Counted from the first letter of the stretch, positions 2,351-62,871 are shown. The stretch: 64,000 nucleotides of DNA from an uncultured Myxococcales bacterium (GCA_964626565.1 CAZVFX010000011.1:15922-79921), one strand, 5' to 3'. The notes: generated from the sequence alone by a model not told the origin. Made by a program: numbers and translations.

Positions 2351-2481
2351 AACCCGGTCCGCGTGCCGGCATTATCTTGGGAAACCGGATCGTAAGTCAA
2401 GGGTTTTCGATGCGCTGAATCAGCGCCGCGCGGAGCGGCGCATACTGCGGTTCCCTACCTAGATCGGGTGCGCGAAAGCAC

Positions 2482-2545
2482 GTAGGTATATGACGCATAC
2501 TACCTACTCCATCTTTTCTATGGGAACTAGGTACTATTTCCTAGT
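2482..2545. promoter_or_regulatory. AT-rich divergent promoter region (HAL-family gene <-> hdr operon) with repeated TAGGTA/TACCTA hexamers forming two inverted repeats
   Basis: GTAGGTA (2482-2488) and TACCTAC (2501-2507) form one inverted repeat. ACTAGG (2526-2531) and CCTAGT (2540-2545) form a second. This is the only AT-rich stretch in a GC-rich window, and it sits between divergent genes. Confidence 0.4.
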
Positions 2546-2644: not shown

Positions 2645-3226
2645 ATGAAACAGATTCAGCAAACCGTTCTTTACGAGGAGGCCATGGACCTCGATTTCCT
2701 CGAGGAGGTCCACGCCATTCCTGGTGGAGAAAAGGTCAAGGAGTGCATCCAATGCGGCACCTGCTCCGGGTCTTGCCCGGTAAGTTGGGCCATGGACCAC
2801 ACGCCCCGCCAGATTATCGCGATGATCCGTGCGGGCATGCGTAAGGAGGTGTTGGACAGTCCCACAATCTGGACATGCGCTTCATGCTATTCGTGTGCGG
2901 TCAACTGCCCCCGGGAAATCAAGCTTACCGACGTGATGTACATCTTGAAGAGGATGGCCATCAAGGATGGGTACGAGGGGAGCAACAACGCCGAGGCTCT
3001 GTCTCAGCACTTTGTTGACCTGGTGAACCAGACCGGGCGCAACAACGAGCGGGTGCTATTGCGACGGTATTTCATGAGCACGCGGCCATTCGGTGCGTTG
3101 AAGGAAGTGGGCCTGGGCTGGAAGCTCTTCCGGCGCGGCCGTCTGCCCTCGCAAACAGAGAAGGTGAAAGACATTGAAGGGTTACGCAAGCTCATTGCCA
3201 AGGCCCTGGAAATGGGAGGTGAATAA
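2645..3226 (+). CDS. hdrC: Heterodisulfide reductase subunit C (two 4Fe-4S ferredoxin motifs)
   Basis: CIQCGTCSGSCP and CASCYSCAVNCP motifs; HdrC-like length; stop overlaps the hdrB start (TAATG). Confidence 0.85.
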   Translation: MKQIQQTVLYEEAMDLDFLEEVHAIPGGEKVKECIQCGTCSGSCPVSWAMDHTPRQIIAMIRAGMRKEVLDSPTIWTCASCYSCAVNCPREIKLTDVMYILKRMAIKDGYEGSNNAEALSQHFVDLVNQTGRNNERVLLRRYFMSTRPFGALKEVGLGWKLFRRGRLPSQTEKVKDIEGLRKLIAKALEMGGE

Positions 3227-4104
3227 TGACCTACACCTATTATCCCGGCTGCTCACTCCACGCGACGTCCCGGGCTTACGACGAGTCCATTCGAGCCATC
3301 GCCGGCACTCTGGGCCTCGAACTCGCTGAGGTAGAGGACTGGAACTGCTGCGGGGCCACCGCGTACATGTCGGTCAACGAGACGTTATCCCACTGCCTTA
3401 CCGCGCGCAATCTGGCGCTGGCAGCGGCCCAGGGTGGCGACATGGTGGCGCCGTGCAGCGCGTGCTACACCAACCTGATGAAGACCAACTCATATCTCAA
3501 GGAATTTCCAGACCTTAAGGAGAAGGTCGACTCGGCTCTCGCCGAGGCGGACCTCACTTATGGCGGTGACGTCAAGGTGCGGCACTTCCTCGAAGTGGTT
3601 GTAAACGACATCGGCCTGGAGAAGATCCGCGGCCTGGTGAAGAAACCTCTGGACGGGTTGAAAATCGCGCCCTATTACGGCTGCCAGATTGTCCGGCCGT
3701 TGAGCGTTGAGGACGACCCCGATGAGCCGGTTCTTCTTGATCATCTGCTGGAAGCCCTTGGGGCCACGGTGGTCACCTATCCCATGAAGACGACCTGCTG
3801 CGGTGGCTCCCTCATGGGAACCAAGGAGGAGGTGGCGCGGCGCCTGACGCGTAATCTGCTGCTGTGCGCCGCACAGTTTGAAGCGGACGTCATCGCAGTA
3901 ACCTGCCCGTTGTGCCAGATGAATCTTGACGGCTACCAGACGCGAATCAACAAGGAGTACGGGACCGCGTTCGAAATCCCGGTGCTCTACTTCCCTCAGT
4001 TGATGGGCATGGCCTTTGGAGAACAGGCGGAGCCCCTTGGACTGCAGCGAGGTGTCGTGCCTTTGGGCGAGACAGTTTCGCGCTACGTGGAGGGTTCGAG
4101 ATGA
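3226..4104 (+). CDS. hdrB: Heterodisulfide reductase subunit B (CCG-domain protein)
   Basis: MTYTYYPGCSL N-terminus, two CCG cysteine-rich domains (NCCG...TCCGG), ATGA overlap with hdrA. Confidence 0.85.
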   Translation: MTYTYYPGCSLHATSRAYDESIRAIAGTLGLELAEVEDWNCCGATAYMSVNETLSHCLTARNLALAAAQGGDMVAPCSACYTNLMKTNSYLKEFPDLKEKVDSALAEADLTYGGDVKVRHFLEVVVNDIGLEKIRGLVKKPLDGLKIAPYYGCQIVRPLSVEDDPDEPVLLDHLLEALGATVVTYPMKTTCCGGSLMGTKEEVARRLTRNLLLCAAQFEADVIAVTCPLCQMNLDGYQTRINKEYGTAFEIPVLYFPQLMGMAFGEQAEPLGLQRGVVPLGETVSRYVEGSR

Positions 4105-7100
4105 GCAGCAAGATCGGAGTGTACATTTGCCACTGCGGCACCAACATCTCGGGCAATGTCGACATCGATGAAGTGGTCGAGTTTGCCCGGACTCTTCCCG
4201 AGGTCTCAATCGTACGGGACTACCGGTTCATGTGCTCTGACCCGGGGCAGAACCTCATCCAGGAGGACATCGACAAGATGGGCCTCGACAGGGTGGTGGT
4301 AGCCTCATGTTCCCCTTTGATGCATGAGCCGACTTTCCGGGGTGCGTGCGAGCGGCAGGGGCTTAACGCCTATCTGTTCACCATGGCCAACATCCGTGAG
4401 CATTGCTCGTGGGTCTCGTTCGATTCCGGCGTGGCCACTGATAAGGCCAAGGCCCTTATCGCCGGTTCTGTGCGGCGAGCCGCCTTCCTGGCCCCTTTGG
4501 AGCAGAAGACTGTTCCGGTGAATCCGAACACTCTGGTGGTAGGCGCCGGCATCGCGGGCATTCAGGCGGCGTTGGACATTGCCGATGCAGGGCACAAGGT
4601 ATACCTGGTGGAGAAAGACAGCTCCATCGGCGGCCACATGGCCAAGTTTGACAAGACCTTCCCCACCCTGGACTGCTCCGCATGTATCCTGACCCCGAAG
4701 ATGGTGCAAGTGGGTCAGCACCCTAACATCGAGTTACTCACCTGTTCTACGGTGGAGGAAGTAACCGGATACGTTGGCAATTTCAAGGCGAAGGTAAAAT
4801 CCACTCCGCGCTTTGTGGACGCGGCCAAGTGCACGTCCTGCGGTGAGTGCACCAAGGTTTGCCCCGTCGATGTCAGCAACGAATTCGAAGAAGGCATGTG
4901 CGACCGGAAGGCGGTGTACCGGAACTTCCCGCAGGCTGTACCGAACACCTTCCTCATCGACCACCCGCAAGCGGCCCCCTGCCAGGCAACCTGCCCGGTG
5001 GGACAGCAGGTGCAGGGCTATGTGGCGCTGGTGGCCCAGGGCAAGTTCAACGAAGCCCACGAACTGATTCGAAAAACCAGCGCGTTGCCTTCGATCTGCG
5101 GACGCGTTTGTTACCATCCCTGCGAAACCAACTGCAAGCGAGAGGCAGTTGATGACCCGGTGGCAGTAAAAGGGTTGAAACGTTTCGTCCTGGACAACTC
5201 GCCGCTGCCCGAAATCGAGCCTCCCCCGAGTTCAGGGAAGAAGGTGGCCATTGTTGGCTCGGGGCCGGCCGGACTTACCGCCGCGCACGACCTGGCCTTG
5301 AAAGGTCACGACGTCACGGTGCTCGAAGCGCAGGCAGAGCTGGGAGGCATGCTGAGGCTCGGCATTCCGGCGTACAGGCTCCCGCGCAACATTATTAAGA
5401 ATGACATTGACTTCATCCGCAAACTGGGGGTGAAATTCCAGACCAACACCCTTGTGGATGCAGCTAGATTCAGCCAACTCCGGGCAACTCACGACGCACT
5501 CTTCCTGGGTGTGGGAGCTCACACGGCTCTGGCCCTGGGGCTCGAGGACGACACGGTGGCGGGCATCGAGTTGGGAATCGACTTTTTGCGCAAGGCCAAC
5601 CTCGGCCTTGACGTTGCGGTGGGGCAGCGGGTCGCAGTCATCGGTGGTGGCAACACCGCGGTGGATGCGGCCCGCACCGCAATCCGTATGGGCTCCCAGC
5701 GGGTCGACATCCTCTATCGCCGCTCGCGGGCTGAAATGCCTGCTGACGACGAGGAGATCGAGGCGCTGCTTGAGGAAGGGCTGAACATAGAGTTCCTGGT
5801 GGCGCCCACCAAGGTACTTCACAAAGACGGCAAATTGACCGGTCTCAAGGTCGTGCAGATGGAATTGGGTGAGCCTGACGCCAGCGGCCGGCGCCGGCCG
5901 ATACCGATTGCAGGCAGCGAAGGGACCGTGGAATACGACATGGTGATCCCCGCAATCAGCCAGAAACCCGATAACGGGTTCGCTGAAAACTCGGGCATGG
6001 AGTTGACCCGGTGGGGCACCATTTCCGTAAACACGGTGAACTGCAGCACAAACATACCCAGGGTCTTTGCCGGCGGCGACAACGTACGAGGCCCGGCCTC
6101 CGTAATCGAAGCGATGGCTGACGGCAAGCGGGCTGCCACCGCCATCCACAACCTGCTTTCCGGCCGCTCTTTGAGTGATGGGCTGACTGCACCCGAACCG
6201 TACGACCTTGAACTGAGCGAAGAAGAACGCCTTACTCTCAAGGTGGATACATCGGTGGAGAAGCGAGTCAAGATGCCGACCCTCGACCCTGCCAAGCGGG
6301 TGACCTCTTTCGACGAGGTCGAACTGGGATACACCGAGGCAATGGCCAGGGACGAGGCGGCGAGATGCCTCAGTTGCGGCGTGTGTTCCGAATGCGGAGA
6401 ATGCGCCCGGGTATGCGAGCCGGGAGCCATCGACTACGACATGAAAGAAACGGTTCATGAAGTGGAAATCGGGTCGGTGATCGTGGCAACGGGGTTTGAA
6501 GCTTTCGACTCGAAGGAGGCGGTGCGTTACGGGTACGGCAAGTTCCCCGATGTTTACACCGGGCTTGAGTTCGAGCGGATGAACAGCGCTTCAGGTCCCA
6601 CCGACGGCCAGTTGCGGCTGAAGAACGGGGAGACCCCCAAGAGTGTGGGCATCATCCATTGCGTCGGCAGCCGCGACAAGCACCACAATGAGTATTGCTC
6701 CCGGGTTTGCTGCATGTACTCCTTGAAGTTTGCTCACCTCGTGGCCGAGAAGACGGGTGCGGAGGTGTACAACTTCTACATTGACATGCGCTGTTTCGGC
6801 AAGGGGTACGAGGAGTTCTACAACCGCTTGCTGGAAGAAGACGTCCGGTTCGTGCGTGGGCGGGCCGCATTTGTCACCGACTTCCCTCTTAACGAAGAGG
6901 AACGGGACAAGTTGGTGATTCGAGTTGAAGACACGCTCATCGGCGAAATGCGGCGCATCCCGGTGGACATGGTAATTCTCTCCACCGGTCTCGAAGCGAG
7001 AAAGGACTCCCAGGACGTGTCCCGGATGTTCAACATCAGCAGGGGGAAGGACGGCTTCTTCCTGGAGAAGCACCCGAAGCTGGCCCCGGTAGCCACGGCT

Positions 7101-7469
7101 ACGGACGGAATCTTCCTCGCCGGCGCGTGCCAGGGTCCAAAGGACATCCCCGACACCGTGGCCCAGGGTTCAGCCGCTGCGGCCCAGGTGCTGTCCATGG
7201 TCGCCAGGGGAGAGATCAGCATCGAGGTTGCCACTTGTACGGTGAACGAGGAGCTGTGCGGGGGATGCCGGGTGTGCAATTCGGCCTGCGCCCTGTCGGC
7301 GATTACGTTCGAAGAAGAAAAGGGCGTTTCAGTGATAAACGACGCTCTGTGCAAGGGTTGCGGGACGTGTGCGGCGGCTTGCCCCAGCGGGGCCATTTCC
7401 GCCAAGCATTTCACGGACGAGCAGATAATCTCTGAAATCGAGGGGGTGCTCCATGACGTACGAGCCTAA
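4101..7469 (+). CDS. hdrA: Large HdrA-like flavoprotein (1122 aa) with an inserted GltD/NADPH-oxidoreductase-like module (HdrL-type)
   Basis: HdrA N-terminal Cys cluster and the FAD fold VVGAGIAGIQAALDIADAGHKVYLVEK. An internal block KKVAIVGSGPAGLTAAHDLALKGHDV...VAVIGGGNTAVDAA (two Rossmann folds) is preceded by a CxxxCP Fe-S region typical of glutamate synthase small subunit. C-terminal CVGSRD plus a 2x[4Fe-4S] region. Confidence 0.8.
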   Translation: MSSKIGVYICHCGTNISGNVDIDEVVEFARTLPEVSIVRDYRFMCSDPGQNLIQEDIDKMGLDRVVVASCSPLMHEPTFRGACERQGLNAYLFTMANIREHCSWVSFDSGVATDKAKALIAGSVRRAAFLAPLEQKTVPVNPNTLVVGAGIAGIQAALDIADAGHKVYLVEKDSSIGGHMAKFDKTFPTLDCSACILTPKMVQVGQHPNIELLTCSTVEEVTGYVGNFKAKVKSTPRFVDAAKCTSCGECTKVCPVDVSNEFEEGMCDRKAVYRNFPQAVPNTFLIDHPQAAPCQATCPVGQQVQGYVALVAQGKFNEAHELIRKTSALPSICGRVCYHPCETNCKREAVDDPVAVKGLKRFVLDNSPLPEIEPPPSSGKKVAIVGSGPAGLTAAHDLALKGHDVTVLEAQAELGGMLRLGIPAYRLPRNIIKNDIDFIRKLGVKFQTNTLVDAARFSQLRATHDALFLGVGAHTALALGLEDDTVAGIELGIDFLRKANLGLDVAVGQRVAVIGGGNTAVDAARTAIRMGSQRVDILYRRSRAEMPADDEEIEALLEEGLNIEFLVAPTKVLHKDGKLTGLKVVQMELGEPDASGRRRPIPIAGSEGTVEYDMVIPAISQKPDNGFAENSGMELTRWGTISVNTVNCSTNIPRVFAGGDNVRGPASVIEAMADGKRAATAIHNLLSGRSLSDGLTAPEPYDLELSEEERLTLKVDTSVEKRVKMPTLDPAKRVTSFDEVELGYTEAMARDEAARCLSCGVCSECGECARVCEPGAIDYDMKETVHEVEIGSVIVATGFEAFDSKEAVRYGYGKFPDVYTGLEFERMNSASGPTDGQLRLKNGETPKSVGIIHCVGSRDKHHNEYCSRVCCMYSLKFAHLVAEKTGAEVYNFYIDMRCFGKGYEEFYNRLLEEDVRFVRGRAAFVTDFPLNEEERDKLVIRVEDTLIGEMRRIPVDMVILSTGLEARKDSQDVSRMFNISRGKDGFFLEKHPKLAPVATATDGIFLAGACQGPKDIPDTVAQGSAAAAQVLSMVARGEISIEVATCTVNEELCGGCRVCNSACALSAITFEEEKGVSVINDALCKGCGTCAAACPSGAISAKHFTDEQIISEIEGVLHDVRA

Positions 7470-7917
7470 AATCGTCGGTTTCCTCTGTAACTGGTGTTCC
7501 TACACCGGCGCTGATCTGGCAGGCATGTCGCGGATGAAATACGCCCACAACGTTCGTATCGTGCGCGTCATGTGTTCCGGCCGGGTAGACCCCACTTTCG
7601 TGGTGAAAGCCTTCGCCAGCGGGGCGGACGGCGTCCTGGTGGCGGGTTGTCACCCCGGGGACTGCCATTACATCGAGGGCAACTACAAAACCATGCGGCG
7701 CATGCCACTCCTGAAGAAGATGTTGAAAGAATATGGAGTGGACGAGCGCAGGTTCCGACTCGAGTGGATCTCGGCCTCCGAAGGCGACCGGTTCGCAGAG
7801 GTGGTCAACGAGATGTCTGCCGAATTAGCTAAGTTGGGCCCGTGCAGTTTGGGGCAGGAAGGCAACGTGCCTGATCAGCCCTCTGATGTGCAACAGCCAG
7901 CAAACCCTGCCGGCTAA
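7453..7917 (+). CDS. mvhD: MvhD-like (methyl-viologen-reducing hydrogenase delta subunit) [2Fe-2S] electron-transfer protein
   Basis: N-terminus KIVGFLCNWCSYTGADLAG...MCSGRVDP...GCHPGDCHY; overlaps the hdrA end by 17 nt. Confidence 0.8.
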   Translation: MTYEPKIVGFLCNWCSYTGADLAGMSRMKYAHNVRIVRVMCSGRVDPTFVVKAFASGADGVLVAGCHPGDCHYIEGNYKTMRRMPLLKKMLKEYGVDERRFRLEWISASEGDRFAEVVNEMSAELAKLGPCSLGQEGNVPDQPSDVQQPANPAG

Positions 7918-7937
7918 GGCGAACGAAAGGAGAGACT

Positions 7938-8894
7938 ATGGCAAAGCTCAAACTCGCTTCGTACTGGGCGGCGGCATGCGGGGGCTGCGACACCGCCATC
8001 CTCGACATTCATGAGAAGATACTGGATCTTGCCGCGGCTGCCGATATTCTGTTCTGGCCCATTGCGGTGGACACCAAGTACAAGGACGTTGAGGCCATGC
8101 CGGACGGTCACATCGATGTCACCTTGTTCCACGGCGCCATTCGCAACTCCGAGAACGAGTACTTGGCCAAGCTGCTCAGAGCCAAGAGCAAAGTACTGGT
8201 GGCATTCGGAAGCTGCTCCCACCTGGGTGGGATCCCCGGCCTGGCCAACATGTTCAACCGTGACGAAATCTTCGAGCGAGTCTATCAAACGACTCCCAGC
8301 ACGGTGAACGAGGCCGGCACGCTGCCTCACATGGTCACCAAGGTGCCGGAAGGCGAACTGGAACTGCCGGAGTTCTACAACACGGTGCGAACTTTGGACC
8401 AGGTGGTGGACGTGGAGTACTATGTTCCCGGTTGCCCTCCGCCCCCGGCACAGATATGGGCTGTGGTGGAGGCCATCGTTTCCGGGAATCTCCCGCCCGC
8501 CGGGTCGATAGTCGGAGCGTCGGACAAGTCGCAGTGCGACGAATGTCCTCGTGAGAAGACCGACATGAAGATGAAAGAGGTGAAGCGTATCGCCACCCAT
8601 CAACCGGACCAGACCCGATGTTTCCTCGAGCAGGGCTTTGTTTGCCTGGGCGCTGCCACACGAGGAGGCTGCGACACCCGCTGCCAGACTTCGGGGGTCG
8701 GTTGCAGGGGATGCTTCGGGCCCACGGCTGAAGTGTTGGACCAGGGGGCCAAGGCTCTCTCCTCCATCGCGTCGGTGCTGGACTCCAACGACCCGCAGGA
8801 AATTGCCCGGATGCTGGAGCAGATAGACGATCCCGTCAGGTTGTTTGATCGTTTCAGTATACCCGCCTCGTTCCTCAGGAGGAAATCGCTATGA
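7938..8894 (+). CDS. mvhG: Group-3 [NiFe]-hydrogenase small subunit (MvhG-like)
   Basis: N-terminal YWAAACGGCDTAIL and a C-terminal Cys-rich Fe-S cluster region (CDECP...C...C...CRGCFGP); ATGA overlap with the large-subunit gene. Confidence 0.8.
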   Translation: MAKLKLASYWAAACGGCDTAILDIHEKILDLAAAADILFWPIAVDTKYKDVEAMPDGHIDVTLFHGAIRNSENEYLAKLLRAKSKVLVAFGSCSHLGGIPGLANMFNRDEIFERVYQTTPSTVNEAGTLPHMVTKVPEGELELPEFYNTVRTLDQVVDVEYYVPGCPPPPAQIWAVVEAIVSGNLPPAGSIVGASDKSQCDECPREKTDMKMKEVKRIATHQPDQTRCFLEQGFVCLGAATRGGCDTRCQTSGVGCRGCFGPTAEVLDQGAKALSSIASVLDSNDPQEIARMLEQIDDPVRLFDRFSIPASFLRRKSL

Positions 8895-10354
8895 AGACCG
8901 TAACCATTGACCCGATCACTCGATTGGAAGGCCATGGGAAGATCACCATCTTCCTCAACGATGCGGGAGGGGTGGAAAACGCCTACTTCCAGGTCCCGGA
9001 ACTGAGGGGCTTCGAGAAGTTCGTTGAGGGTATGCCGGTGGAGGAGGTCCCAAGGGTGGTGCAACGCATCTGCGGGGTCTGACCGGCCGCACACCATCTG
9101 GCCTCGGGTAAGGCCGTAGACGCAGTATACAAAGCAGATCCTCCGGTGGCAGCAAAAAAACTGAGAGAGATGTTCTACAGCGCTCACTACGTGCACAGCC
9201 ACATCGCGCACTTTTACGCTCTGGCCGCGGCCGACTTCGTTGTCGGCCCTGATGCAGACCCGGCAGAGCGGAACATCCTCGGCGTGGTGGGAAAGGTGGG
9301 TGTGGAGATTGGCGGGGAAGTGATCAAGCATCGCGCTATTGCGCAGAACATCCAGATCGCGATCTCAGGACGGTCGACCCACCCTGTATGGTGCGTTCCC
9401 GGTGGGGTAAGCAAGGGGATCACCGAGGAGCAACGCCTGGAAATCATCGAGCAGGCGAAAAGCTGTGTGGAGTTCTCCAAGTTCTCCCTTAAGATCTTCA
9501 ACGATGTGGTGCTGGGCAACAAGGCTTACCTCGACCTGGTGTTGAGCGACACTTACGAGCTGGACTCGTACTACATCGGGACTGTGGATAAGAACAACCA
9601 TGTGAACTTCTACCACGGCGACCACCGGGTAGTGGATCAGGAGTGCAACGAGGTCTTTCGCTATCAGGATCATGAGTACCTGGATTACCTGGCCGAGCAC
9701 GTCGAGAAGTTCACTTATCTAAAGTTCCCGTATCTCAAGAAGATCGGCTGGAAGGGCATGGTGGACGGTAAAGATTCGGGGGTCTACCAGGCCACTCCGC
9801 TCAGTCGCCTCAACGCGGCAGTAGGCATGGCCACGCCGGCCGCCCACGCTGAGTATGAACGCATGTTCGAGACCCTGGGCGGCAAGCCGGTGAAGAAGCT
9901 CCTCGCCACCCACTGGGCGCGTCTGGTGGAGTTGCTCTATGCGGCAGAGCGCCTCCTGGAGCTGGCCCAGGACCCGGAGGTTGCATCTCCCGATGTCCGC
10001 AACCTGCCCACGGAGACTCCGTCCGAAGGTGTCGGCATCGTGGAAGCCCCCCGGGGCATTCTGACTCACCACTACAAAACCGACGAAAGAGGAATCGTTA
10101 CCGCGGCCAACATAATCGTTGGGACGACCAACAACCACGCCCCCATCTCCATGGCCATCAAGAACGCAGCCGAAAAGCTGATTCAGCCAGGCCAGGAGAT
10201 TGGGCAGGGCCTCCTCAACATGGTGGAGATGGCCTTCCGCATTTATGACCCCTGCTTCTCTTGCGCAACTCACACTTTGCCGGGGGAGATGCCCCTTATC
10301 GTTGAGGTGCGTGATCACAATGAAGAGGTGGTCCACCGGGTGGCGCGCTCATGA
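8891..10354 (+). CDS. mvhA: [NiFe]-hydrogenase large subunit (MvhA-like). The in-frame TGA at 9080-9082 falls exactly on the second Cys of the N-terminal RxCGxC Ni-binding motif, so it is a probable selenocysteine. The track splits it into 8891..9082 and 9146..10354.
   Basis: Translation reads ...VVQRICGV[TGA]PAAHHLASGKAVDAVY..., compared with MvhA [20 protein letters not shown]. The same frame stays open across the TGA, with no other stop between 9083 and 9145. The C-terminal DPCFSCATH motif and a 26-aa extension are intact. Confidence 0.75.
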
Positions 10355-10815
10355 AGACCCGGGTCATCGGCCTCGGCAACTCCATCCTCACCGACGACGG
10401 TGTTGGAATTGTGGTTGTATCCGAACTGCAGAAGACTCCGCAGGGCGGGGAGGTCGACGTCATCAGGTCCGAGGTAGCCGGCTTCGCACTGTTGGAGCTG
10501 ATGAGCGGCTGGGACCGTGTCATTCTCGTTGATGCAATCAAGTTCGACGACCTTGAGCCCGGCACCATTGTCCGCATCGATCCTGCCGACTTGCGAACCT
10601 CACTCAGGTTGCGATCGGTTCACGAAATCGACCTTCCTACCGCGCTTGCGTTCGGTCGCAAGCTCAAGATCCCCATGCCTGAGAAGGTAGTGGTCATCGG
10701 CATCCAGGCCGATGACATTCTCACGTTCGGAGAGACGTTAACTCCGGCGCTCGCCAAGGCTGTGCCAGAGGCCGTCAATCTGGTACTGGAGGAGTTGGCC
10801 GAACCCCAGGGGTGA
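10351..10815 (+). CDS. Hydrogenase maturation endopeptidase (HycI/HoxW/FrhD, peptidase A31 family)
   Basis: GLGNSILTDDGVGIVV motif; size 154 aa; ATGA-coupled to the large subunit, whose C-terminal extension it would cleave. Confidence 0.8.
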   Translation: MKTRVIGLGNSILTDDGVGIVVVSELQKTPQGGEVDVIRSEVAGFALLELMSGWDRVILVDAIKFDDLEPGTIVRIDPADLRTSLRLRSVHEIDLPTALAFGRKLKIPMPEKVVVIGIQADDILTFGETLTPALAKAVPEAVNLVLEELAEPQG

Positions 10816-10821
10816 ACCCGC

Positions 10822-11487
10822 CTATTTCATCTGGATAAGCCCGACCTTGATTGCAAATTGCGTGAGCTTTGACCGATTGCGAATACCCAGCTTGTCGGTG
10901 AGATTGAACCTGTGCGCCATGACGGTTTTCACCGCCAGCCCCAACGCCTCGGCCATCTCCTTGTTGCTATAGCCCTCCGCAATGAGTTTCAGGACCTGTC
11001 GCTCCCGGGGCGTGAGCAGGTTATACGCCGCCTCTTCGCTCTCCGGCTGACCGCCGCCGCCGGGCCCCGCGACGAGTTCCTGGGCCAGGCTGGGATCGAT
11101 GTACATTCCCCCGGCCATCACTCCTCGAATCGCGGCGAGCAGTTCCTCGCCGCGCGCGGACTTAAGAATGTACCCGTTGGCCCCCGCCTCAATGAGCCGC
11201 CGCAAGTAGATCGACTCTCCGTATTGGGTGAGTATGAGAATGCGGATTTCCGAGCGCCGTCGGCGCAACTCAAGGGTGGTCTCCAGTCCGCCCATCCCTT
11301 CCATCGACAGGTCGAGAAGCAGGAGGTCCGGATAGAGCCGGTCTACCAACTCGATGGCGCCCTCGCCCGAGGAGGCTTCGCCCACCACTGTAAACCGCGT
11401 TTCGGTCTGCTCTTCAAGGAAGGACTTCAAGCCCACCCGGAGAACCACATGATCATCGGCAAGAACAACCCTTATGGTCGAACCCAT
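10822..11487 (-). CDS. NarL/LuxR-family response regulator (REC + HTH_LuxR)
   Basis: The N-terminal REC domain (VVLADDH..., conserved D/K positions) and the C-terminal LTPRERQVLKLIAEGYSNKEMAEAL helix-turn-helix. Confidence 0.85.
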   Translation of the reverse strand: MGSTIRVVLADDHVVLRVGLKSFLEEQTETRFTVVGEASSGEGAIELVDRLYPDLLLLDLSMEGMGGLETTLELRRRRSEIRILILTQYGESIYLRRLIEAGANGYILKSARGEELLAAIRGVMAGGMYIDPSLAQELVAGPGGGGQPESEEAAYNLLTPRERQVLKLIAEGYSNKEMAEALGLAVKTVMAHRFNLTDKLGIRNRSKLTQFAIKVGLIQMK

Positions 11488-13881
11488 CTACTCTTCCTCC
11501 CCTGCGGACGTTTCATCGACCAGAGCCGTCGGCACCGTAACTCGAATGGTGGTACCCGCGCCCACCGCGGTGTCCACCTCCATGGTGCCGTTGAGGAGTT
11601 TAGCCCGCTCCTCCATGCCCAGTAATCCCAAGCCCCGCCCGGTCGCGGCCGGAGTGGTCAGCGACAGTTTGGCCACGTCGAAACCGTTACCGTCGTCTTC
11701 GATGGTCAAAGTCACGGCGCGGGGCGAGAAGACCACCGTCGCGATAATATGCTCGGCCAATGCATGCTGGACCGTATTCTGCAGACTCTCCTGAAAGATC
11801 CTGAACAACCTGATGGTGGTCTCCGGCGGCAACTCCCGCTCCTCTCCTTCGAGCACGAAGCGGGTCTTGATGCCCCGTTCCCGCTCTACTCGCTCCAGGT
11901 GCCATTGCAAGGCTGGGAGAAACCCCATGCTGTCAAGCACCGAGGGCCTCAAGTCCAGAGTTATCCGGCGCACCGTATCCTGCATCTTGCGGGTCTGCTC
12001 CTCCAGGTCACGGACCCGATTGGCCAACTCGTCTCTAGGGGCCTCTCCGGCCAGCCTTTCCAACTGCAGGCTGAGCGCAGACAGGTCCTGGCTCACCGTA
12101 TCGTGAAGCTCCCGGGCGACCCGTCGCCGTTCTTCCTCTTGTGCGGACAGCACTCTGCGCAGCAGTTCACGCCGCTGGGTCTGCCGAAGCAGCTCCTCAT
12201 CGGCCAATATCCGGTTGGCCGCGCTCATGGCGATATGGTGAAGCAGGGAGTGAAGCCTGCGCTCCTCGAGCACAGCCTCCCCGTCGGGCTGCAGAAGCAC
12301 GCACTTGACCAGAGGCCCCCGGGGAATCGCCAACTCCGCAACCAGCACCGCGTCCGTGCGATCCAACCCGGTACCGTCCCGCTCGTCCCCCGGTATGTCC
12401 TTGATGACAAAGCCGTCTTCTGAAGAAGCAAGCAGCGTACCCCTACGGTCCCTGGGCAACACCGTGCAGAGGTCGAGCGCGGAGTCGACCTGCGCAGGGA
12501 GCAGACCGCGGGATGCTTGCAGTTTCCGATCCCGAAATTGCATGCGCAACGCACCCTGCGAAAACCCCAGCACATCCAGTGTGTGTTCAAGACCGCGGCG
12601 AACAATAGCCTCGGTGTGCGGCACATCCAACGATGACTTGCTGATGCCGTCCAGAGCCAGCACCAACCGGTTGGAAGCCTCGGCCTCTTCCCGCAAGAGC
12701 ACCTGCTGCCGCTCAGTCAGCGAAAGTGCTTCCACCAGCCCGCTGCGCCAGGCATTCAGAACAGACGCGAGCCTCCCCACTTCCCCTTCCCCCAGGGAGG
12801 GCAATTCCCGGTTGGATCCGGAAAGCTGGCCCATTCGTACTGCGTTCTCCAGCCTCTTCACCGGACCAACGACCCGGTGGGCCAGAAATGCGCCGGCCAA
12901 GAGAAACAGCGTCAACACCAGCCCCTCAACAAGGATGAGCTTCCATCTCAATTCGGTGGCCGGGGCCAAAGCCTCCTCTTCCGACTGCCGCACGGCAATC
13001 CCCAGAGGAAACGACGGAAAAGGTGCAAATGCCAGCACGTCTTCGTCACGGCTGACCTCTCCCGCACCCACCTCATGGCAACGGTGGCACCGCCCGGAAA
13101 AGGACCGCCCTTCCGCGATCGCTTCGCTTAGCAAATCGTTGTGCGCAGTAACGGAGCGTCTCCCGCTTTCACGTTCAGGTGCTAGCGACGCGCCGCTCGC
13201 AGTGACCAGGTCGAGCTCCCCAGTCTCCCCGAGTACAAACCCCTCAAACGTGCTGCCCAGTTCCAGGGCTTCCCCGTAAACCAGGCCCCCGACGCAACCG
13301 GGCCGGACCGCGCCGGAGGGTGCCGGAGCCACCGCCTTGACTACGATGACCGAGGGCGTTGCACCTGCGAATCCGGCCGCCTCGGCTCGGCCGGTTTTGC
13401 GCGCCAACTCGCACAGCCGCCCCGCTTTGCCCGGTAGATCGTGTCCGGAGTGGGATGCAACCACCGTGCGCCCCTCGACGTCCACAATGAAGGCGTCGCG
13501 GAAGAAGAGTGACGACTGGCAGGTTCTCTGCAACCCCGCAGCAAGCTGAGAGGAGCCCAGATCGTCGGCACCGGGCAGTTGACCCACCAGCGTGGCGACA
13601 CGGGAGATTTCCGTGCGCAACTCGGCTTCCAGATGCCTGCCGGCTATTCTCGCCAGTTGGACCCGCTCTTCGAGAAGCCGGTGTTCGAACGAATCCCTCA
13701 CCGAACCCGAGTGATAGAAGAGTGCAGCCATGACTGCCACTCCCCCGGCCAGGAGAACAGCGAGGAAGCGCGCATAGAGGCTGGATCGCCAGGGCAGTCG
13801 CTGGACATCCCCGATGAGAGGCCATCCGGGTGACTTGACGCCCGGAATCTCGGGCGGATTATGGGTGTGCTCCTTGTTCAT
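11488..13881 (-). CDS. Sensor histidine kinase (HisKA_3/HATPase, NarX-like) with a large periplasmic sensor domain between two TM helices; the periplasmic domain carries a CXXCH motif
   Basis: TM1 FLAVLLAGGVAVMAALFY and TM2 LILVEGLVLTLFLLAGAFL. HisKA_3 ELHDTVSQDLSAL and a C-terminal ATPase. The start is probably ATG at 13879-13881 (MNKEH, RBS GGAG); the track ORF extends to 13965. GRCHRCHE lies at 13075-13089. Confidence 0.75.
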   Translation of the reverse strand: MNKEHTHNPPEIPGVKSPGWPLIGDVQRLPWRSSLYARFLAVLLAGGVAVMAALFYHSGSVRDSFEHRLLEERVQLARIAGRHLEAELRTEISRVATLVGQLPGADDLGSSQLAAGLQRTCQSSLFFRDAFIVDVEGRTVVASHSGHDLPGKAGRLCELARKTGRAEAAGFAGATPSVIVVKAVAPAPSGAVRPGCVGGLVYGEALELGSTFEGFVLGETGELDLVTASGASLAPERESGRRSVTAHNDLLSEAIAEGRSFSGRCHRCHEVGAGEVSRDEDVLAFAPFPSFPLGIAVRQSEEEALAPATELRWKLILVEGLVLTLFLLAGAFLAHRVVGPVKRLENAVRMGQLSGSNRELPSLGEGEVGRLASVLNAWRSGLVEALSLTERQQVLLREEAEASNRLVLALDGISKSSLDVPHTEAIVRRGLEHTLDVLGFSQGALRMQFRDRKLQASRGLLPAQVDSALDLCTVLPRDRRGTLLASSEDGFVIKDIPGDERDGTGLDRTDAVLVAELAIPRGPLVKCVLLQPDGEAVLEERRLHSLLHHIAMSAANRILADEELLRQTQRRELLRRVLSAQEEERRRVARELHDTVSQDLSALSLQLERLAGEAPRDELANRVRDLEEQTRKMQDTVRRITLDLRPSVLDSMGFLPALQWHLERVERERGIKTRFVLEGEERELPPETTIRLFRIFQESLQNTVQHALAEHIIATVVFSPRAVTLTIEDDGNGFDVAKLSLTTPAATGRGLGLLGMEERAKLLNGTMEVDTAVGAGTTIRVTVPTALVDETSAGEEE

Positions 13882-14053
13882 TGGCTCCGGACCGCCAACG
13901 GGCGAATCAAGCCCGTCTTTGACGCCTCTATCTAAAGCGATGGCAGCGGGATTGTCAACGACCACCGCTCACGGTTGCTGGTCATGGGACAAGCCATTTG
14001 GTATGCTCTTGCCGTATTCTTGTGCAACATCCTGCTTCGTCGAGGTCAGACCT

Positions 14054-33004: not shown

Positions 33005-33054
33005 TTTTGGGCGGCAAACCTATACCGAACACAAATACAGAGAGGAGATGCATC

Positions 33055-33861
33055 ATGAGAACACGCATTGCGGCCGTGTGTATCAGCGCCTGCCTCGGAC
33101 TGTCCCTGCTTCCCGCGCTCGGATGCGAGGGCGCGGATGCGGGCAACGCTGACACCGAGGAACTTGGCTACCCGGACATGACTGAGGCGGCCCAGCCGGA
33201 CTCGACGTCCTCACCGGACGAAGCTTCCTCACCGGAGGCAGGAATCCCGGATGCGGACCCTCCCCTGGACATCATGGCCGAGATTGCGCCGCCGGCACCC
33301 GCTTCGGTGGCGCCGAAGCTGGCGCTCTTTCTGGAAGGGCGCTTCGATTCCACCGGGCAGGCTGCGGAGAACTTCGCCTATTTCGAGGTGCAACTGTGCG
33401 CGTGCCGGGTGCAGGCGCCGAAGTTGGGTGAGTACGTTTTGTATGTAGAGCAGGCTATGATGAGTGCCCTCGGCCAGCCCTACCGGCAGCGCATCTACGT
33501 GGTTGAGGCGCTGGAACCGGCGGAAGTGGCTGCAGTTTCCCGCGTCTTCTCGCTCAAGGACCCCGGCCAGTTCACTGGCTTGTGTGAAACGGGGTTGGAG
33601 AAGGCAGTGACCCCTTCCATGGTTGAGGAACGCAAAGGTTGTGAGGTGCTGGTGGAATGGCAAGACGGAGCCTTCCTCGGCGGCACAGCCGGTCAGAACT
33701 GCGCCAGCTCCCTCAACGGCGCCCAGTACGCCACCAGCCAGGTAGAGATCACCAAGAACCGGATTACATCATGGGATCAGGGCTTCAACGCCCAGGGCGT
33801 GCAGGTGTGGGGCGCAGAAGCCGGCCCGTACGTCTTCGATCGGAAGACCGCTATTCGGTAG
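33055..33861 (+). CDS. Hypothetical lipoprotein
   Basis: ATG 33055 with RBS GAGAGGAG; signal AAVCISACLGLSLLPALGCEG. Confidence 0.5.
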   Translation: MRTRIAAVCISACLGLSLLPALGCEGADAGNADTEELGYPDMTEAAQPDSTSSPDEASSPEAGIPDADPPLDIMAEIAPPAPASVAPKLALFLEGRFDSTGQAAENFAYFEVQLCACRVQAPKLGEYVLYVEQAMMSALGQPYRQRIYVVEALEPAEVAAVSRVFSLKDPGQFTGLCETGLEKAVTPSMVEERKGCEVLVEWQDGAFLGGTAGQNCASSLNGAQYATSQVEITKNRITSWDQGFNAQGVQVWGAEAGPYVFDRKTAIR

Positions 33862-61887: not shown

Positions 61888-62871
61888 CTATTCTGAGAAA
61901 CGTTTGACGCGCACGTGGCAATAAGGCTGCTTTCCCGTCTTCCGGTAGTAGTCCTGGTGATAGTCTTCGGCCGGCCAGAAAGTTTCGGCAGGCTCCAGAG
62001 TGGTCGCGACGCGAAGGCCCTGCTTTTCCAGCAACCCAACCAACTCCCGAATGGTATTCCGCTCCTCCTCGGTAGCATAGAACACCGCGGAGCGATACTG
62101 CTCTCCGACATCCGGCCCCTGCCGATTCACCTGGGTCGGGTCGTGGATTTCAAAAAAGAGCCTGGCCAGTTCCCGATATGTGATTTTGGATGGGTCGTAG
62201 GCCACACGCACCACTTCAACGTGGCCGGTGTCCTTCGAGCAGACTTCCTCGTAGGTAGGCTTCGCAGTACGCCCCCCCATGTAGCCGGACACCGCTTCCG
62301 ACACGCCGTCCACTTGTTCGAAATGGTGCTCAACACCCCAGAAACACCCTCCTGCAAAATAGGCGGCAGCCTCACCGACCGGCAACGGAGCGAATTCCAG
62401 GGAAACTGAATTCACGCAGTGCCGCGTATCGTTAGCGTTCAGCCCCTCCCCGCGAAAGACGTGGCCCAGGTGCGCACCACACGCCGCGCAAGTGATCTCA
62501 GTGCGAGCGCCGTCCGCGTCCACAGTCTCCTTGACTGCGTCAGGTAGCGCCGAGTCGAAACTGGGCCATCCTGAGCCGGAGTCGAACTTGCTTCCCGATT
62601 CGAACAGAGAAGCGCCGCAACGCCTGCAACTGTAGGTGCCGTCATCGTGATGATTGAGGAACTTGCCCGAAAAGGGCCTCTCGGTGCCCTTGTGAATGAT
62701 CACCCTCTCCTCTTCCGGCGTCAGTTTCTTTTCCATCATTCGTTCCCTTGGAGCTTCCTCCGGTGACGCCAGAGAATAAGCCCCGGCACATAATATCGCG
62801 AACAAGCCGCTGATCAACAGCAGAGTCTGCTCAGTCATGATACGCCTCGGCGGTGTTGCAAGCCGCTTCAC
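61888..62871 (-). CDS. msrAB: Secreted bifunctional methionine sulfoxide reductase MsrB-MsrA fusion
   Basis: MsrB CRRCGASLF...GWPSF...HLGHVF...RHCVNS followed by MsrA GGCFWGVE...EDYHQDY; N-terminal signal peptide. Confidence 0.8.
   Translation of the reverse strand: MKRLATPPRRIMTEQTLLLISGLFAILCAGAYSLASPEEAPRERMMEKKLTPEEERVIIHKGTERPFSGKFLNHHDDGTYSCRRCGASLFESGSKFDSGSGWPSFDSALPDAVKETVDADGARTEITCAACGAHLGHVFRGEGLNANDTRHCVNSVSLEFAPLPVGEAAAYFAGGCFWGVEHHFEQVDGVSEAVSGYMGGRTAKPTYEEVCSKDTGHVEVVRVAYDPSKITYRELARLFFEIHDPTQVNRQGPDVGEQYRSAVFYATEEERNTIRELVGLLEKQGLRVATTLEPAETFWPAEDYHQDYYRKTGKQPYCHVRVKRFSE

Follow-up and report, generated by a model that had tools for sequence, protein, structure and literature searches.

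Analysis of a 64,000-nucleotide stretch of DNA from an uncultured Myxococcales bacterium (GCA_964626565.1, CAZVFX010000011.1:15922-79921; the whole stretch is referred to as the window and positions are counted from its first letter) revealed that mvhA, encoding the large subunit of a hydrogenase in the operon hdrC-hdrB-hdrA-mvhD-mvhG-mvhA-protease (2645-10815, + strand), is interrupted by a single in-frame TGA which very probably encodes selenocysteine (Sec). The encoded enzyme is probably a [NiFeSe] variant of group 3c carrying an N-terminal CxxU motif, in which selenium would form the bridge between Ni and Fe. The sequence-only reading of this locus had treated mvhA as an uninterrupted gene and missed the TGA at 9080-9082; the recoded UGA is the more interesting feature of the operon, the HdrL/Mvh architecture of which is already known.

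8891..10354, + strand: mvhA, 487 codons including the UGA, large subunit of a group 3c [NiFe(Se)] hydrogenase; NF041785 VhuA at 395 bits, below cut-off
9080..9082, + strand: UGA, predicted selenocysteine codon, residue 64, at the second (Ni-Fe bridging) Cys position of RxCGxCxxxH
9099..9116, + strand: putative selenocysteine insertion sequence (SECIS) hairpin, stem 9099-9104 / 9111-9116, loop CGGGUA 9105-9110

The in-frame UGA of mvhA and its hairpin

The TGA divides the mvhA frame into 63 and 402-424 codons and is the sole stop in 487 codons. A mechanical list of open reading frames (ORFs) begins mvhA only at a GTG at 9146, and public gene calls (JGI, ENA, Logan and NCBI) break the gene into a 63-aa fragment annotated as 'HoxH' and a product of 394-402 aa. 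The best solved relative of the full-length translation is 5ODC_F (MvhA; E = 8e-109 over residues 4-467), in which the Cys of RICGIC aligns to the UGA. The C-terminal motif, DPCFSCATH, is of the Cys type, and 26 further residues form an extension for the protease; in place of the canonical DPUxxC, this gene has DPCFSC, and all related loci in which the motif was found have DPCxxC (locus L010 is cut short). Regarding classification, the assignment to group 3c is based on hydrogenase subunits nearest to MvhA and MvhG, the presence of MvhD, the C-terminal extension and a HycI-family protease, and among NCBIfam models the large and small subunits match VhuA and VhuG best, both scoring below the equivalog cut-offs.

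Other origins of the codon were considered and rejected. A sequencing error is ruled out by independent assemblies from at least six samples, since JGI 3300009008, a Logan assembly and five samples of ENA SUTE22-1 all give the same DNA. Reassignment of the genetic code is ruled out since TGA is the true stop of hdrB, mvhG and mvhA, and a split large subunit of the kind known as VhuA/VhuU is ruled out since translation could restart no earlier than GTG 9146 and the enzyme would be short of a Ni ligand.

Comparison was made with the 80 closest loci from a scan of species-representative genomes, fetched through MvhA. In 21 of these loci codon 64 of mvhA is TGA, which is the sole in-frame stop within the first 480 codons, while the other loci have TGC or TGT. 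A hairpin with the consensus UGGCCU-CG(G/U)G(U/C)A-AGGCC(R) is common to all 22 Sec-type genes, with a 6-bp stem, a 6-nt loop that starts 22 nt after the UGA and a G at loop position 2 (22/22), and all six of its pairs form in 22/22 Sec-type genes compared to 8/60 Cys-type genes (Fisher p = 1e-13). Bacterial SECIS elements are hairpins shortly downstream of the UGA with a G in the first two loop positions (PMC13582414), a consensus which the loop G of the present hairpin fits.

Codon usage indicates what this conservation acts on. Among 158 columns with an invariant degenerate amino acid in the 21 full-length Sec-type genes, six also have an invariant codon (F44, U64, A71, S72, K74 and A75), and four of the five non-Sec frozen columns are the hairpin codons GCC, UCG, AAG and GCC (A71, S72, K74 and A75). 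In Cys-type genes the same A-S-G-K-A is written with the full range of synonymous codons, and the hairpin is lost in the close Cys-type relatives L008 and L005 (CTC GCC TCC GGC/GGG AAA GCG). Because the hairpin codons are synonymously frozen in the Sec-type genes only, the pattern argues firmly for selection on the RNA and not on the protein.

Several observations weigh against reading the UGA as Sec. The genes selA, selB, selC and selD were not found in the 64-kb window or in the 6 kb recovered upstream, no sel gene was among the Pfam annotations of about 30 further window ORFs, and no tRNA-Sec was found in a tRNA scan of the window and 22 loci. Rfam scans returned no SECIS or other RNA family, either across the window at gathering thresholds or in 9040-9200 at E-values up to 10. 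When the 60 nt starting at 9081, with the last two bases of the UGA, are folded as a single sequence, the result does not surpass that of shuffled sequences (z = 0.63); the minimum free energy structure of these 60 nt competes with the conserved hairpin, and the element is revealed only by comparative analysis. The closest relative of both the HdrA and the MvhA of the window, locus L005, is of the Cys type. Furthermore, genomes with tRNA-ReC may read such a UGA as Cys (PMC13582414).

Decoding of the UGA as Cys, through a tRNA-ReC-type suppressor or near-cognate read-through, would yield an ordinary [NiFe] hydrogenase, and the lack of Sec machinery in the window suits this explanation as well. 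It is nevertheless very unlikely, since a suppressor tRNA needs no hairpin, whereas one of the SelB type stands at the right distance from the UGA and is under purifying selection only in the UGA-type genes, and since the mvhA UGA co-occurs with canonical Sec codons of MvhD in 9/21 loci and in some of these also of HdrA. It is hardly credible that mvhA is a pseudogene or encodes two polypeptides, leaving an HdrCB-HdrL-MvhD NAD(P)H:disulfide reductase without functional hydrogenase: gene callers do give products of 63 aa and 394-402 aa, and Syntrophobacter and Desulfobacterium do have HdrL-MvhD loci that lack MvhA (PMC2702500; PMC5947623), but the TGA is the only stop in the frame and recurs across 21 diverged genomes as well as in more than 110 protein clusters, both mvhG and the gene of the dedicated protease are undamaged, a restart at GTG 9146 would drop the conserved PxxHH segment, and a split removes one Ni ligand.

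Sec-type and Cys-type relatives

Carriers of the codon-64 TGA belong to the Acidobacteriota, Bacillota, Krumholzibacteriota, Dehalococcoidia, Latescibacteria and UBP1, and the named ones include Desulfotruncus alcoholivorax DSM 16058, Candidatus Desulfopertinax and Peptococcaceae. In the protein data the same interruption appears as truncated products: a search with the 63-aa N-terminal piece gave, as its best 120 matches, almost exclusively proteins of 63-64 aa with 75-89% identity, 26 of 27 inspected N-terminal fragments end in RICGV, and the more than 110 protein clusters mentioned above terminate at the same MvhA residue. The cultured Desulfallas thermosapovorans DSM 6562 has a 64-aa 'F420-non-reducing hydrogenase large subunit', an instance of the same mis-annotation, and the signature of CG-x-UGA followed by the hairpin was detected on at least 120 metagenome contigs. 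One fragment departs from this pattern; P0164 (65 aa, from a 478-kb contig) ends in RICGVCP with the stop two codons later, which may be a different interruption or another recoding site.

Regarding further selenoproteins of the complex, MvhD and HdrA are on a published list of selenoproteins (PMC13188914). The canonical Sec site of MvhD (Cys66 here) is also TGA in nine of the 21 Sec-type loci, and that of HdrA (Cys195 here) in four of those nine, all of them Dehalococcoidia. Up to three in-frame TGAs, at MvhA-64, MvhD-66 and HdrA-195 in window numbering, were seen in the Dehalococcoidia loci L022, L026, L029 and L032 and in others, and the three sites shift between TGA and TGY independently of one another among genomes.

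In a rough neighbour-joining tree, Sec-type and Cys-type genes are interleaved, with at least seven changes of state. As every Sec-type lineage has the same hairpin sequence, this mosaic would most simply be read as descent from an ancestor with Sec, followed by several reversions to Cys and possibly by transfers.

The predicted enzyme shares with the canonical [NiFeSe] hydrogenases of Desulfomicrobium baculatum, Desulfovibrio vulgaris (Hys) and Methanococcus voltae (Vhu/Fru) the replacement of one Ni-ligating Cys by a UGA-encoded Sec; in those enzymes, however, Sec occupies the terminal-ligand position, within the C-terminal DPUxxC, whereas here this motif is DPCFSC and Sec would be located in the N-terminal CxxC. 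Vhu of Methanococcus voltae is itself a group 3c enzyme. An N-terminal CXXU with a predicted Ni-Fe bridge had earlier been noted in no more than three sequences, two of Group 1 and one of Group 3 (Baltazar et al., 2011, in PMC13582414), and N-terminal Sec has been reported as a new feature of Group 4, where the Cys-type relatives form a mosaic with degraded hairpins (Takano et al., 2026; PMC13582414). The position of Sec, the SECIS hairpin just downstream and the mosaic of Cys-type relatives with degraded hairpins are the same in the Group 4 variants and in the present genes; unlike the Group 4 variants, the present form belongs to Group 3c, for which the literature searched gives a single exceptional sequence; here it occurs in 21/80 closest genomes and on at least 120 metagenome contigs, all with one shared hairpin sequence. 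An engineered counterpart is available in the C79U variant of Escherichia coli Hyd-1, substituted at the equivalent bridging site, which is active with 13% of native H2 oxidation; it was the best of four single substitutions and showed a lower Km for H2 and no gain in O2 tolerance (PMC8020662).

The Hdr-Mvh operon and proposed electron flow

The remaining genes of the operon, and the module inserted in HdrA, are as follows; families were assigned from Pfam and NCBIfam.

2645..3226, + strand: hdrC, 193 aa, two [4Fe-4S] motifs; Fer4_8/Fer4_17; TIGR03290 HdrC below equivalog cut-off
3226..4104, + strand: hdrB, 292 aa; PF02754 CCG in two stretches; TIGR03288 HdrB at 207 bits, below cut-off
4101..7469, + strand: hdrA of the HdrL/type III kind, 1122 aa; two-stretch alignment to 5ODC_A
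4965..6383, + strand: GltD/NfnB-like insert of HdrA, residues 289-761; [4Fe-4S] region, FAD fold GSGPAG, NAD(P)H fold GGGNTA
7453..7917, + strand: mvhD, 154 aa, [2Fe-2S] connector; PF02662 FlpD, E = 9e-57
7938..8894, + strand: mvhG, 318 aa, hydrogenase small subunit; PF01058; NF045875 VhuG at 239 bits, below cut-off
10351..10815, + strand: hydrogenase maturation endopeptidase, 154 aa; PF01750 HycI; TIGR00072 at 126 bits, above the 47-bit cut-off

The gene positions and the 1122-aa HdrA proposed in the sequence-only reading agree with the ORF coordinates and translations, as do its gene assignments with Pfam and NCBIfam for all seven genes, and the overlapping stop and start codons it described were found at every site: TAATG at 3224-3228 between hdrC and hdrB, ATGA at 4101, 8891 and 10351, and a 17-nt overlap of hdrA and mvhD at 7453-7469. 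Between mvhD and mvhG there is a 20-nt gap holding the ribosome-binding site AAAGGAGAG, and a GGAGGG ribosome-binding site is located 7 nt 5' of hdrC. The gene overlaps suggest translational coupling of the seven genes. Regarding completeness of the module, which had also been claimed, all seven genes are indeed present, but the frame of mvhA is broken by the TGA, and because mvhA is without an uninterrupted ORF the module is complete only if the UGA is recoded. An aromatic-amino-acid lyase gene in divergent orientation (722-2350, - strand) borders the operon on one side, and a two-component system in convergent orientation (10822-13965, - strand) on the other.

The gene order is common among the 80 loci. 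The GltD insert of HdrA was detected in seven of them and in L005, and most have an HdrA of ordinary size. An unusual arrangement was seen in L065 (2800-13000), from a Porphyromonadaceae metagenome-assembled genome (MAG), which has two tandem mvhD-mvhG-mvhA sets with an HdrA-like gene beside each.

In HdrB, both Cx(32-37)CCx(34-35)CxxC motifs are legible in the translation, corresponding to two CCG domains, which we take to be the sites of the disulfide-reducing non-cubane [4Fe-4S] clusters.

The large HdrA matches 5ODC_A, the HdrA of Methanothermococcus wolfeii, with E = 2.5e-216 as a whole, residues 4-288 and 762-1120 aligning to residues 5-290 and 293-653, so that a 473-residue insert enters between residues 290 and 293 of the methanogen protein. 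The insertion splits the inserted ferredoxin domain of HdrA between its first Cys motif (CTSCGECTKVCP) and its second (CSECGECARVCEP); a free, ferredoxin-reducing domain as in HdrABC-MvhADG is therefore absent. In HdrA this domain is the electron exit to ferredoxin, while MvhD together with the ferredoxin domain at the C-terminus forms the entry for electrons from H2 (PMC9012536). FAD-site residues E356 and K409 (methanogen numbering), proposed as hallmarks of bifurcating HdrA (PMC12054007), are kept in the alignment, which agrees with the HdrA layout of HdrABC-MvhADG complexes: an N-terminal cluster domain, a thioredoxin-reductase-like FAD domain and two ferredoxin domains.

A GltD-like NAD(P)H oxidoreductase had been suspected in the insert and is borne out by the domain search, which identified a two-cluster region (Fer4_20, 291-366), Pyr_redox_2 (380-675) and the NCBIfam family PRK12771 'NAD(P)-binding protein' (525 bits, above the curated cut-off of 516). 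Structural matches are NfnB (4YLF_B and 5JCA_L, E ~3e-94), GltD (2VDC_G and 6S6S_G), the N-terminal modules of StnC/NfnABC-type chains (9BOV_A, 9N5U_A and 8OH5_C) and, likewise, dihydropyrimidine dehydrogenase; the NfnB and GltD matches span residues 291-689 and those to the StnC/NfnABC-type chains extend to ~780. These matches support the insert being an NAD(P)-binding oxidoreductase of the GltD/NfnB type, and its fold motifs suggest that it could bind NAD(P)H and turn it over. The first dinucleotide fold is GSGPAG and the second GGGNTA followed by YRR; under the GxGxxG versus GxGxxA rule for nucleotide preference (PMC12054007), GxGxxA with YRR suggests a preference for NADPH.

In addition to this module, it had been suggested that NAD(P)H could exchange electrons alongside H2. 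The NAD(P)-binding insert agrees with an NAD(P)H port, but since the point of insertion lies within the inserted ferredoxin domain, the module is spliced onto the ferredoxin port, and because it sits precisely there NAD(P)(H) is more likely to replace ferredoxin than to work beside it.

The architecture of this HdrA is not new and is already known as HdrL or type III HdrA. The protein database holds at least 8000 candidate HdrA homologues, all with E <= 1e-50, and full-length homologues number in the thousands; the best 120 candidates are 1100-1145 aa long with 55-67% identity and carry names from Aminicenantes, Calditrichia and Zixibacteria. The link to HdrL of sulfate reducers made in the sequence-only reading is confirmed by Desulfobacterium autotrophicum HRM2, in which a fusion of HdrA and the glutamate synthase small subunit is followed by mvhD (PMC2702500), and HdrL, also known from Syntrophobacter fumaroxidans, is expressed in Syntrophobacter (PMC5947623). 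In ANME-1, an NfnB-like block of ~500 aa interrupts the inserted ferredoxin domain of HdrA (PMC9012536), and a 'type III HdrA' class has been defined in which bathyarchaeotal hdrA is clustered with mvhADG and the insert is suggested to block ferredoxin access, the site being repurposed for NADH (PMC12054007). As in these proteins, the GltD/NfnB-like module of the window HdrA lies within the inserted ferredoxin domain and mvhD comes next, with the 17-nt overlap. Differences are that the second fold is GxGxxG in archaeal type III HdrA (PMC12054007) and GxGxxA here, that HdrL1 and HdrL3 of strain HRM2 are selenoproteins while the HdrL here is of the Cys type, and that the described HdrL loci of sulfate reducers are without the MvhA which is present here, in a Myxococcota-like MAG. 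The Hdr/Mvh/HdrL part is thus an ordinary, Myxococcota-like bacterial example of a described architecture, which sharpens the point that the module sits on the ferredoxin port.

Two further systems are close to parts of the complex. The insert shares with NfnB, GltD and the N-terminal module of dihydropyrimidine dehydrogenase the Fer4_20 two-cluster region and the Rossmann folds for FAD and NAD(P)H, but unlike NfnB and GltD it is not a free subunit, is without an NfnA-like or GltB-like partner and extends to residue ~780. The methanogen MvhADG-HdrABC complex (PDB 5ODC) has all six subunit types and provides the best solved relatives of HdrA and MvhA, and the HdrB CCG motifs, the MvhD connector, E356 and K409 are kept here. 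In contrast to that complex, the present one is found in a bacterium, is encoded in a single operon hdrCBA-mvhDGA, has a ferredoxin port interrupted by the 473-residue module and has an MvhA with a predicted Sec at the N-terminal bridging position.

By homology of this wiring, the operon is likely to encode a soluble HdrCB-HdrL-MvhDGA complex, together with its protease, with three redox ports on the FAD of HdrA and with electrons from H2 split between a disulfide and NAD(P)+. The H2/H+ port would be the group 3c Mvh-type hydrogenase, its large subunit read through the UGA as Sec by means of the SelB-type hairpin, with Se replacing the second Cys of the N-terminal CxxC, a Ni-Fe bridging ligand, and not the canonical terminal ligand at the C-terminus. 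The thiol/disulfide port would be formed by the two HdrB CCG-domain clusters and would act on a substrate other than CoM-S-S-CoB. The NAD(P)+/NAD(P)H port would be the GltD/NfnB-like module, placed where methanogen HdrA passes low-potential electrons to ferredoxin. One branch would lead through HdrC and the non-cubane clusters of HdrB to the disulfide (downhill), and the other through the split ferredoxin domain and the clusters and FAD of the GltD module to NAD(P)+ (uphill at environmental H2 pressures). Regarding the disulfide, the sequence-only reading had named no acceptor, and this stands, with no DsrC-like or other candidate gene in the window: thiol carrier, DsrC and other dsr candidates were not found by Pfam annotation of about 30 further window ORFs, and methanogenesis genes were not found in the window either, with no pathway of coenzyme M or coenzyme B evident.

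The relatives with the closest MvhA point to a different coupling. In Acidobacteriota (L007, 4049-8577; also L006 and L008), mvhDGA and the protease are preceded by a NuoE-like gene (2Fe-2S, thioredoxin-like), a NuoF-like gene (FMN/NADH) and a gene for a 610-aa protein in which a NuoG-type N-terminus is fused to HdrA's C-terminal half; these loci are without HdrB, HdrC and the N-terminal half of HdrA. The NuoE/NuoF/NuoG-like set appears to be an alternative means of connecting this hydrogenase with NAD(H).

Two considerations weigh against the proposed splitting of electrons from H2. At standard potential H2 can reduce both acceptors, and bifurcation is then not needed; at the micro-atmosphere H2 typical of anoxic habitats, however, the H+/H2 couple rises by ~30 mV per decade, the reduction of NADP+ turns uphill and bifurcation of H2 electrons makes sense. 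A published proposal assigns the roles the other way round, NADH being the mid-potential donor while H2 is produced (PMC12054007).

The latter assignment applied to the present complex, with NAD(P)H entering through the GltD module as mid-potential donor and being bifurcated to the disulfide and to protons so that H2 is made, is unlikely but a serious contender, also when taken jointly with a variant in which the reversed complex would confurcate electrons to NAD(P)H. This direction was put forward for the bathyarchaeotal type III HdrA whose gene is clustered with mvhADG (PMC12054007) and the architecture is equally compatible with it, but both electron paths must exchange roles. NAD(P)H as donor is also favoured by the example of glutamate synthase, where GltD serves as the module for NADPH input.

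A complex without bifurcation, in which a plain H2:NAD(P)+ oxidoreductase and an attached disulfide reductase carry out two independent reactions, is quite improbable. Both acceptors are downhill from H2 at standard potential, and the Acidobacteriota relatives, with MvhDGA joined to NuoE/NuoF/NuoG-like modules, suggest that the hydrogenase is often simply NAD-linked; however, the full bifurcation core is kept, with the HdrA FAD site (E356 and K409) and intact HdrB and HdrC, and the order hdrCBA-mvhDGA is widely conserved.

Genomic context and significance

Features flanking the operon that may bear on its regulation are as follows.

2456..2533, no strand assigned: candidate operator 5' of hdrC, TACCTA-N21-TAGGTA twice (2456-2461, 2483-2488, 2501-2506 and 2528-2533)
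10822-11487 and 11488-13965, - strand: NarL/LuxR-type response regulator and HisKA_3 histidine kinase, from Pfam families of public gene calls

Four of the seven copies of the TAGGTA/TACCTA hexamers in the window are located in these 78 nt, as two units 45 nt apart, and in L005 three of four copies lie upstream of hdrC (8309-8360). The array may serve the adjacent NarL-type regulator as an operator. The same pair of regulator and kinase flanks the operon of L005 (17800-20777), where the kinase has a dCache domain, and this conserved neighbourhood suggests dedicated regulation of the operon. Scans for promoter and terminator consensus sequences were at chance level. Regarding maturation, the protease gene of L005 (16720-23384) is immediately followed by hypA and hypB, with hypE, hypD, hypC and hypF located on the far side of the two-component system; no hyp gene was found by Pfam annotation of the window, which counts against the complex as proposed.

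The best named matches of the glutamine synthetase of the window are MAGs of Myxococcota, 'Deltaproteobacteria' and Planctomycetota (73-76% identity), while its MvhA is closest to Acidobacteriota (77-79% identity), and because of this difference in nearest relatives the operon may have been laterally acquired. Elsewhere in the window are genes for, among others, surface and secreted proteins with MopE-type CDGxDNDCD motifs and TSP3 repeats, OmpA, a Ser/Thr kinase, a GGDEF regulator and GlnA. The myxobacterial-like context noted earlier is weakly supported, by the glutamine synthetase matches, the CDGxDNDCD and TSP3 motifs and the Ser/Thr kinase. No second selenoprotein candidate emerged when the window was scanned for other in-frame TGAs with long ORFs on either side. 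A fusion of MsrB and MsrA (SelR and PMSR domains; 61888-62871, - strand) has no in-frame TGA, and a protein matching CpeT/CpcT (DUF1001, phycobilin lyase family; E = 6e-42) is encoded at 33007-33861 (+ strand) in what is apparently a non-photosynthetic anaerobe.

The group 3c CXXU form is apparently common rather than exceptional, and the enzyme of the window is a predicted member of it. On balance, these genes may well represent a large, old and systematically mis-annotated class of bridging-selenolate group 3c hydrogenases, spread over at least six phyla, sharing one SECIS (UGGCCU-CGKGYA-AGGCCR) and repeatedly lost to Cys. If this is true, Sec has been selected by nature at two ligand positions of the [NiFe] site that differ in mechanism; within the literature searched, bridging Sec in Group 3 is represented by only one flagged sequence, besides the engineered variant of E. 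coli. A bridging Sec would be chemically distinct from the well-studied terminal Sec, and C79U suggests that it may confer a higher affinity for H2. The natural enzyme would be experimentally reachable via the cultured Desulfotruncus alcoholivorax and Desulfallas thermosapovorans, and the mosaic of Sec and Cys together with a single conserved SECIS would provide a clean system for the study of selenoprotein gain and loss. Because public gene calls cut the hydrogenase into fragments of 63 aa and ~400 aa, surveys of H2 metabolism will undercount or misread it, both here and in many sediment and subsurface lineages.

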